A DNA stretch of 64,000 bases, taken from the NCBI RefSeq assembly GCF_024502345.1, contig NZ_JALDNN010000001.1. One strand, given 5' to 3'. This DNA comes from Escherichia coli. Lineage in GTDB: Bacteria > Pseudomonadota > Gammaproteobacteria > Enterobacterales > Enterobacteriaceae. Shown one piece after another: positions 37,570 through 38,919 of this stretch. Position 1 is the stretch's first letter. The number at the start of each line of letters is the position of its first letter. Position numbers and translations under genes: made by a program. A model generated the notes under the pieces. That model had not been told where the DNA came from and made no database searches. It was given only the letters and a program-made list of their open reading frames with translations.

Positions 37570-38100
37570 ATGGCTATCACTGGCATCTTTTTCGGCAGCG
37601 ACACCGGTAATACCGAAAATATCGCAAAAATGATTCAAAAACAGCTTGGTAAAGACGTTGCCGATGTCCATGACATTGCAAAAAGCAGCAAAGAAGATCT
37701 GGAAGCTTATGACATTCTGCTGCTGGGCATCCCAACCTGGTATTACGGCGAAGCGCAGTGTGACTGGGATGACTTCTTCCCGACTCTCGAAGAGATTGAT
37801 TTCAATGGCAAACTGGTTGCGCTGTTTGGTTGTGGTGACCAGGAAGATTACGCCGAATATTTCTGCGACGCATTGGGCACCATCCGCGACATCATTGAAC
37901 CGCGCGGTGCAACCATCGTTGGTCACTGGCCAACTGCGGGCTATCATTTCGAAGCATCAAAAGGTCTGGCAGATGACGACCACTTTGTCGGTCTGGCTAT
38001 CGACGAAGACCGTCAGCCGGAACTGACCGCTGAACGTGTAGAAAAATGGGTTAAACAGATTTCTGAAGAGTTGCATCTCGACGAAATTCTTAATGCCTGA
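37570..38100 (+). CDS. fldA: flavodoxin 1
   Basis: ORF-track 215 aa trimmed to [27 protein letters not shown] (176 aa); long-chain flavodoxin FMN-binding loop. Confidence 0.96.
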
Positions 38101-38305
38101 TGTGATGCGGCGTAGACTCATGTCTACGCCGCATTAATAGATAATGCCAATCAAAATAATTGCTACAAATTTGTAACTTTTGCTGTTGTACCTGTACAAT
38201 GTCCCGGTGTTCAAGTGGCCTTGCCGTTGTAAATGTAAGCTGTGCCACGTTTTTATTAACAATATTTGCCAGGGACTTGTGGTTTTCATTTAGGCGTGGC
38301 AATTC

Positions 38306-38324
38306 TATAATGATACGCATTATC
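38306..38324. promoter_or_regulatory. Fur-box-like palindrome in the uof-fur leader
   Basis: TATAATGATACGCATTATC matches the 19-bp Fur box consensus GATAATGATAATCATTATC at 16/19 positions; it overlaps the uof start codon. Confidence 0.6.
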
Positions 38325-38396
38325 TCAAGAGCAAATTCTGTCACTTCTTCTAATGAAGTGAACCGCTTAGTAACAGGACAGATTCCGCATGACTGA
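38310..38396 (+). CDS. uof: fur leader peptide (upstream ORF coupled to fur translation)
   Basis: 28-codon ORF MIRIISRANSVTSSNEVNRLVTGQIPHD ending 8 nt into fur; matches the known uof arrangement. Confidence 0.75.
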   Translation: MIRIISRANSVTSSNEVNRLVTGQIPHD

Positions 38397-38835
38397 TAAC
38401 AATACCGCCCTAAAGAAAGCTGGCCTGAAAGTAACGCTTCCACGTTTAAAAATCCTGGAAGTTCTTCAGGAGCCGGACAACCATCACGTCAGTGCGGAAG
38501 ATTTATACAAACGTCTGATCGATATGGGTGAAGAAATTGGTCTGGCTACGGTATATCGCGTACTGAACCAGTTTGACGACGCTGGTATCGTCACCCGCCA
38601 CAATTTTGAAGGCGGTAAATCCGTATTTGAACTGACACAGCAACATCACCACGATCACCTGATCTGCCTCGACTGCGGCAAGGTTATCGAATTTAGTGAT
38701 GATTCCATCGAAGCGCGTCAGCGTGAAATTGCCGCAAAACATGGCATTCGCCTAACTAACCACAGTCTCTATCTTTACGGTCACTGTGCCGAAGGCGATT
38801 GCCGCGAAGATGAACATGCGCACGAAGGCAAATAA
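38389..38835 (+). CDS. fur: ferric uptake regulator
   Basis: 148-aa ORF MTDNNTALKKAGLKVTLPRLKILEVLQEPDNHHVSAEDLYKRLIDMGEEIGLATVYRVLNQF... Confidence 0.98.
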   Translation: MTDNNTALKKAGLKVTLPRLKILEVLQEPDNHHVSAEDLYKRLIDMGEEIGLATVYRVLNQFDDAGIVTRHNFEGGKSVFELTQQHHHDHLICLDCGKVIEFSDDSIEARQREIAAKHGIRLTNHSLYLYGHCAEGDCREDEHAHEGK

Positions 38836-38851
38836 GCCAGCCTGAATGAGA

Positions 38852-38880
38852 AAAAGCCAACCTGCGGGTTGGCTTTTTTA
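38852..38880 (+). terminator. rho-independent terminator after fur
   Basis: AAAAAGCCAACC-TGCGG-GTTGGCTTTTTTA: perfect stem with flanking A and T runs (potentially bidirectional, facing ybfN). Confidence 0.85.
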
Positions 38881-38919
38881 TGCAAGGGAAATAAGAAAAG
38901 CGAGAGTTACAGCTCTCAC

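Follow-up and report, generated by a model that had tools for sequence, protein, structure and literature searches.

The window analysed here is a stretch of 64,000 nucleotides, and the part around positions 38300-38400 is the fldA-uof-fur region of Escherichia coli. A 401-nucleotide query spanning 38100-38500 found matches in 5424 of 5426 complete E. coli genomes, where the annotation beneath the matches reads fldA, 'uof: fur leader peptide' and fur. Between 38095 and 38400 the window differs from K-12 MG1655 by a single SNP at 38132; all else, including the Fur-box element discussed below, is identical, so that published K-12 data are directly applicable. Window positions convert to K-12 coordinates as MG1655 v3 = 749035 - window and NC_000913.2 = 748258 - window. 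Within E. coli, the 48 nucleotides from the -35 hexamer of the proximal fur promoter to just beyond the Fur box are 100% identical in 5272 of the 5424 genomes. The Fur protein passes the NCBIfam equivalog model NF006999 with 309 bits, and the uof peptide, encoded by 28 codons at 38310-38396 (translation MIRIISRANSVTSSNEVNRLVTGQIPHD), passes the 'fur leader peptide' model NF011344, where it scores 85.2 bits and the cutoff is 71. The features of the region, with the basis on which each was placed, are as follows.

37570-38100, plus strand: fldA (ORF list, sequence).
38171-38176 and 38195-38200, plus strand: -35 hexamer TTGTAA and -10 hexamer TACAAT of the upstream promoter uofp, with start G38207 (promoter scan, Kim 2012).
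38283-38288, plus strand: -35 hexamer TTTTCA of the proximal fur promoter Pfur (promoter scan, conservation).
38289-38398, no strand assigned: 110-bp 'fur promoter' fragment used in EMSA, whose printed sequence in PMC10318462 equals the window sequence.
38291-38306, plus strand: candidate RyhB pairing site at the uof initiation region (duplex prediction, -11.0 kcal/mol).
38306-38311, plus strand: -10 hexamer TATAAT of Pfur, identical with Fur-box positions 1-6; its last two letters are the A and T of the uof ATG.
38306-38324, found on the plus strand: Fur box (operator) TATAATGATACGCATTATC, 16/19 to consensus, with inverted arms ATAATG and CATTAT.
38310-38396, plus strand: uof, the 28-codon fur leader peptide ORF, whose stop overlaps fur (sequence, RefSeq annotation, NCBIfam NF011344).
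38319, plus strand: Pfur transcription start A (46 reads, Kim et al. 2012 supplement).
38375-38378, plus strand: probable fur Shine-Dalgarno AGGA, inside uof and 10 nt before the fur ATG (sequence, conserved block).
38389-38835, plus strand: fur, the ferric uptake regulator (RefSeq annotation, NCBIfam NF006999).

Several further elements flank these features. A 13-bp perfect hairpin (38105-38134) lies directly after the fldA stop codon and has no T-run behind it; the polymorphic position 38132 falls within this hairpin, where C in the window, in place of T in MG1655, exchanges the K-12 G-U pair for a G-C pair. Between the hairpin and the -35 hexamer of the upstream uof promoter there is a second, weak Fur-like box, GATAATGCCAATCAAAATA (38140-38158), which agrees with the consensus at 14 of 19 positions and is partially conserved across Enterobacterales; about 1.2 such matches per window are expected by chance. 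Beyond fur, the convergent fur/chiQ terminator at 38844-38900 gives sub-threshold Rfam matches on the minus strand, to STnc370 (30.6 bits, gathering score 54) and also to isrD and STnc50.

The Fur box TATAATGATACGCATTATC agrees with the 19-bp consensus GATAATGATAATCATTATC at 16 of 19 positions. Taken as hexamers in the arrangement forward, forward, one base, reverse, it reads TATAAT (5/6), GATACG (4/6), C and ATTATC (6/6), and the dyad symmetry is present, the arm ATAATG being the exact reverse complement of CATTAT. No other site on either strand of the 64 kb comes within three mismatches of the consensus, and 100 dinucleotide shuffles put the chance expectation at 0.01. In a second scan no further site reached 15/19; the expectation from local shuffles was 0.03 at this threshold, and none of them reached 16/19. 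An earlier note on this DNA, made from the letters alone, had placed a near-consensus Fur box (a term that 16/19 justifies) at exactly this position, overlapping the ATG of the 28-codon uof, and had described the uof stop as overlapping fur, and this layout is borne out throughout. The uof ATG at 38310-38312 occupies Fur-box positions 5-7, and the uof TGA at 38394-38396 lies across fur codons 2-3, fur itself starting with the ATG at 38389.

The coincidence of operator and start codon has a simple explanation in the consensus. Written as GATA-ATG-ATA-ATC-ATT-ATC, it contains an ATG at positions 5-7, and any near-consensus Fur box will therefore place an ATG where the uof start codon is found. 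Here the -10 hexamer TATAAT and the G that follows it yield the same triplet (TATA-ATG), and the N-terminus of uof, MIRII, is the Fur box read as codons.

What the earlier note had missed is that the box is also the core of the proximal promoter, with TATAAT as its -10 hexamer and the transcription start inside the box. The promoter scan recovered TTTTCA, a 17-bp spacer and TATAAT, scoring 10/12 with sigma-70 geometry. The genome-wide map of Kim et al. 2012, obtained by exonuclease-enriched 5'RACE-seq of triphosphate-enriched 5' ends (PMC3415461), lists in its supplementary file 2 a fur start at NC_000913.2 709939 with 46 reads and a 70-nt leader, and the upstream sequence given for this start ends in ...TATAATGATACGCA / ...TCTATAATGATACGCA. 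In the window this is A38319, the fourteenth position of the Fur box, at which uof codon 4 begins; it is separated from the -10 hexamer by 7 nt and lies 9 nt after the uof ATG.

A38319 is the strongest mapped start of the intergenic region, with 46 reads against 8 and 5 for the weaker starts that the same study assigns to uof, at 710051 (G38207, 8 reads) and 710082 (38176, 5 reads) (PMC3415461). G38207 agrees with the second promoter-like site of our scan, TTGTAA-18-TACAAT at 38171-38200, which Shimada et al. 2014 give as the uof-fur promoter (PMC3946193), and both of its hexamers are conserved in the set of 80 sequences described below. The literature on K-12 describes the same arrangement: the Fur box overlaps the -10 of Pfur-a, with fur starts within uof and the uof start upstream (PMC7867234); Pfur is 'located within the uof ORF' and Puof lies upstream of it (PMC6191717); and RNA-seq indicates read-through into uof-fur from ybfE and fldA (PMC4161252). 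The earlier note had also considered the case in which all fur promoters lie downstream of the element and Fur gives no protection of it; this does not hold, as the starts at 38207 and 38176 are upstream of the element and Fur binding is documented. A further start in the data of Kim 2012, at 38382 with 28 reads (PMC3415461), lies 7 nt upstream of the fur ATG and would give either a nearly leaderless fur mRNA without the Shine-Dalgarno sequence or may be a processing or exonuclease artefact.

From these features the element is, with little room for doubt, the Fur operator already known from the proximal sigma-70 promoter of E. coli fur. Fur was reportedly first footprinted on the fur promoter by de Lorenzo in 1988, and the promoter is said to have been mapped by Zheng in 1999. 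In the EMSA of Fontenot and Ding (PMC10318462) the 110-bp fragment listed above was shifted by [2Fe-2S]-Fur and not by apo-Fur, and the exact 19-mer TATAATGATACGCATTATC is marked there as the Fur box of the fur promoter; binding of [2Fe-2S]-Fur to a fur promoter fragment is likewise reported in PMC12683245. Autoregulation of fur has been described as moderate and iron-dependent (PMC7867234); a CRISPRi screen of promoters, run in glucose minimal medium, found it weak, with a change of less than 30% (PMC10505187). When active, Fur bound at the box would cover both the -10 hexamer and the start site of Pfur. Judging from this geometry, and by analogy with other Fur operators, RNA polymerase would be excluded, and such occlusion would be expected to produce a modest negative autoregulation of fur.

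Consideration of where the transcripts begin gives insight into how this control relates to the leader peptide. Since A38319 lies after the uof ATG, transcripts of the promoter controlled by the Fur box do not carry the uof start codon, and the transcripts that do carry uof come solely from upstream, from 38207, from 38176 or by read-through from fldA and ybfE. The mRNAs that begin at 38319 would be under operator control, would not contain the uof AUG and would probably also lack the RyhB site just upstream. In the mRNAs from the upstream promoters the box, as RNA, would form the uof initiation region, and it is on these that RyhB and uof-fur coupling would act. Control at the DNA level and control at the RNA level may thus apply largely to different classes of fur mRNA.

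Translation of uof, its coupling to fur, and the repression of uof and thereby of fur by RyhB go back to Vecerek 2007 as summarised in PMC7534054 and PMC12683245; as to where RyhB acts, PMC7534054 says just that it blocks uof initiation. The small RNA has since been seen to lower the short 'Pfur' mRNA, with the longer uof-fur mRNA unaffected (Sinha 2018, PMC6191717). This result fits poorly with a RyhB site located solely upstream of 38319, and either an internal candidate site or a misassignment of bands could account for it.

Duplex predictions between RyhB and the leader give more than one candidate site. With full-length RyhB the predicted duplexes are long and loopy, the best (38267-38306) engaging the terminator stem of RyhB. 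When the prediction is restricted to the seed (nt 37-48), the target at 38291-38306 reaches -11.0 kcal/mol, with a predicted core in which GUGGCAAU (38296-38303) pairs with RyhB AUUGCUCAC, G44 and C45 included, and the target at 38329-38343 reaches -12.1 kcal/mol. The predicted duplexes are no better than those of shuffled targets (mean best of shuffles -16.8), so that the site is not assignable by computation; PMC3018821 expresses the same reservation about the published RyhB pairing model. The second of these candidates, GAGCAAATTCTGTCA (38329-38343, -12.1 kcal/mol and likewise at shuffle level), lies inside uof and would be shared by the long and the short fur mRNAs; the candidate at 38291-38306 is missing from the 38319 transcript. 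This difference is relevant to the reported effect of RyhB on the short mRNA alone (PMC6191717).

We compared 80 Enterobacterales loci, fetched with Fur as the probe, which together with the window make 81 sequences. The best-conserved blocks upstream of fur are the uofp hexamers, the Pfur -35 TTTTCA, TATAATGA, ACGCATT, and the ribosome-binding region and start of fur. In the alignment of the 80 Enterobacterales loci TTTTCA, TATAATGA and ACGCATT are conserved at 80-95% or more, and for TTTTCA conservation is at least 95% among 72 distinct Enterobacterales sequences. The block AACAGGACAG...CCGCATGACTGA at the fur Shine-Dalgarno is nearly invariant among species, and the middle of uof is poorly conserved in the same upstream alignments. 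Conservation alone is no proof of operator function, because the left half of the box is inseparable from the -10 hexamer and the right half overlaps the start site.

TATAATGA is found within 140 nt of fur in 73 of the 81 sequences (80 loci and the window), and the reading frame that opens at the box ATG takes the following forms.

Uof-like ORF of 28-30 codons whose stop overlaps fur, versions with frame-preserving 3- or 6-nt indels included: 37 sequences.
ORF in another frame, ending at the fur ATGA: 7 sequences.
ORF in frame with fur and free of stops: 4 sequences.
ORF with a stop 15-73 nt before fur: about 24 sequences.
ORF reading well beyond the fur start: 1 sequence.

A uof-like ORF is thus present in 37 of the 73 box-bearing sequences. 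The stop comes early, for instance, in Salmonella enterica subsp. arizonae (16 codons), in Klebsiella oxytoca (14 codons) and in Pantoea, where the peptide is MRRK. Across 22 distinct 28-codon versions of uof, variability at the three codon positions is 10.6/8.2/11.2 and hence only weakly periodic. As a component of the promoter and operator, the box ATG thus persists in a range of species considerably wider than that of uof.

Other details of the reading frame vary within this set. The serine codon UCA of uof has been tied in the literature to iron-responsive decoding. Codon 6 of uof, TCA in the window (38325-38327), is CCA (proline) in 11 of the 22 distinct 28-codon versions, and the UCN serine codons 10 and 13 are better kept than codon 6. 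In Buttiauxella, Dryocola and one Enterobacter sp. (loci L057, L058, L060 and L063) the box ATG is in frame with fur and the frame is stop-free; it lies 66-69 nt upstream of the fur ATG (1201) and, if used, would add 22-23 N-terminal residues to Fur. A spacing of 78 nt, one nucleotide shorter than in E. coli, occurs in the lineages of Citrobacter sedlakii, Enterobacter sp. Bisph1, Citrobacter sp. Awk 4 and Salmonella enterica subsp. arizonae (L006, L015, L018 and L028). The shorter spacing turns uof into a 16-codon ORF that ends 27 nt before fur, which indicates that the layout with an overlapping stop is not fixed even among close relatives.

The earlier note had viewed the element as operator DNA embedded in a translational leader, with autoregulation layered by Fur at the DNA level and by RyhB and uof at the RNA level. 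The two layers stand, as Fur repression and RyhB/uof control are both published (PMC10318462, PMC7867234, PMC7534054, PMC12683245), and transcripts from 38207, 38176 and fldA/ybfE do contain the box as RNA. The account becomes a stricter one if both layers are placed in one leader on the same mRNA, with the RNA palindrome structuring the uof initiation region. This same-leader picture is incomplete, in that the strongest start, A38319, lies inside the box and past the uof ATG, and the transcripts under operator control bypass uof. Nor do we find support for a selected RNA structure at the uof initiation region. The palindrome is able to form a 6-bp hairpin enclosing the AUG, but its energy is only -2.1 kcal/mol (z = -0.65), 46 of 200 shuffles are as good, and it is absent from the minimum-energy fold in a 51-nt context. 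Against shuffled sequences, the 214-nt leader from 38207 folds with z = -0.43 and the 103-nt Pfur leader with z = -0.66, and in an Rfam search the leader was covered by no family. The further proposal of the earlier note, that the box as RNA contributes structure near the uof start, accordingly falls at shuffle level, and we regard a single leader carrying both controls as possible but on the unlikely side.

Fur bound at the box might also act as a roadblock for polymerase arriving from uofp, fldAp and ybfEp, by which DNA-level control would reach the uof transcripts as well. The geometry taken alone would allow this, with the box 100-130 bp downstream of the upstream starts, and read-through along ybfE-fldA-uof-fur is documented (PMC4161252); the weakness of Fur autoregulation overall (PMC10505187) speaks against it, and we consider such a roadblock rather unlikely. 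It could finally be argued that the sequence is simply a strong -10 region whose likeness to a Fur box is coincidental and which binds no Fur in any functional sense. The best-conserved part, TATAATGA, is indeed accounted for by the -10 hexamer, and autoregulation was weak in one genome-wide assay (PMC10505187). However, a 16/19 match is expected only about 0.01 times per window, and both the right hexamer ATTATC, a perfect match, and the conserved ACGCATT fall outside the -10. Coincidence is moreover contradicted by the EMSA, in which active Fur, but not apo-Fur, binds the fragment (PMC10318462), and by the reported iron-dependent autoregulation (PMC7867234); we give this explanation almost no credence.

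A more far-reaching scheme, a serious possibility that still falls short of likely, would have the promoter and operator ancestral in Enterobacterales and uof a younger ORF born from the ATG of the box, with the operator supplying its first five codons. Under this scheme E. coli would make two kinds of fur mRNA: one controlled by the Fur box and starting at A38319, which bypasses uof and the upstream RyhB site, and longer, operator-independent ones under the control of RyhB, uof and MiaB-dependent decoding.

The operator, the promoter, uof and the RyhB loop of fur are all already published and annotated, and none of them is a discovery of this analysis. Two points are mildly new: the comparison of loci, in which conservation of the operator and promoter extends far wider than that of uof as a reading frame, and the consequence, made explicit here, that uof is bypassed by the transcripts under operator control. 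Enteric bacteria have Fur as their master iron regulator, and its own level matters for iron homeostasis and virulence. The present analysis adds a clarification, namely that the Fur box forms the promoter core and that the start lies inside the box and past the uof ATG.

The Fur box known from the fur promoter of E. coli K-12 is the identical element, the same 19-mer, with no difference. The uof described by Vecerek, Moll and Blasi 2007 is also the same ORF, with 28 codons, the overlap with fur and UCA as codon 6, and again we see no difference within E. coli. The relatives among the Enterobacterales do differ from E. coli, as the full-length ORF is found in just 37 of the 73 box-bearing sequences, and half of the distinct 28-codon versions have CCA as codon 6. 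With the classic Fur operators of iucA/aerobactin, fepA-fes and ryhB the fur box shares the 19-bp dyad, or three-hexamer GATAAT array, placed over the -10 and the start site; those operators repress by occlusion, and by analogy the fur box would do the same. It differs from them in that the regulated gene is fur itself and the repression is merely moderate, and in that transcription from upstream promoters runs through the box, which serves as a start-codon region as well.
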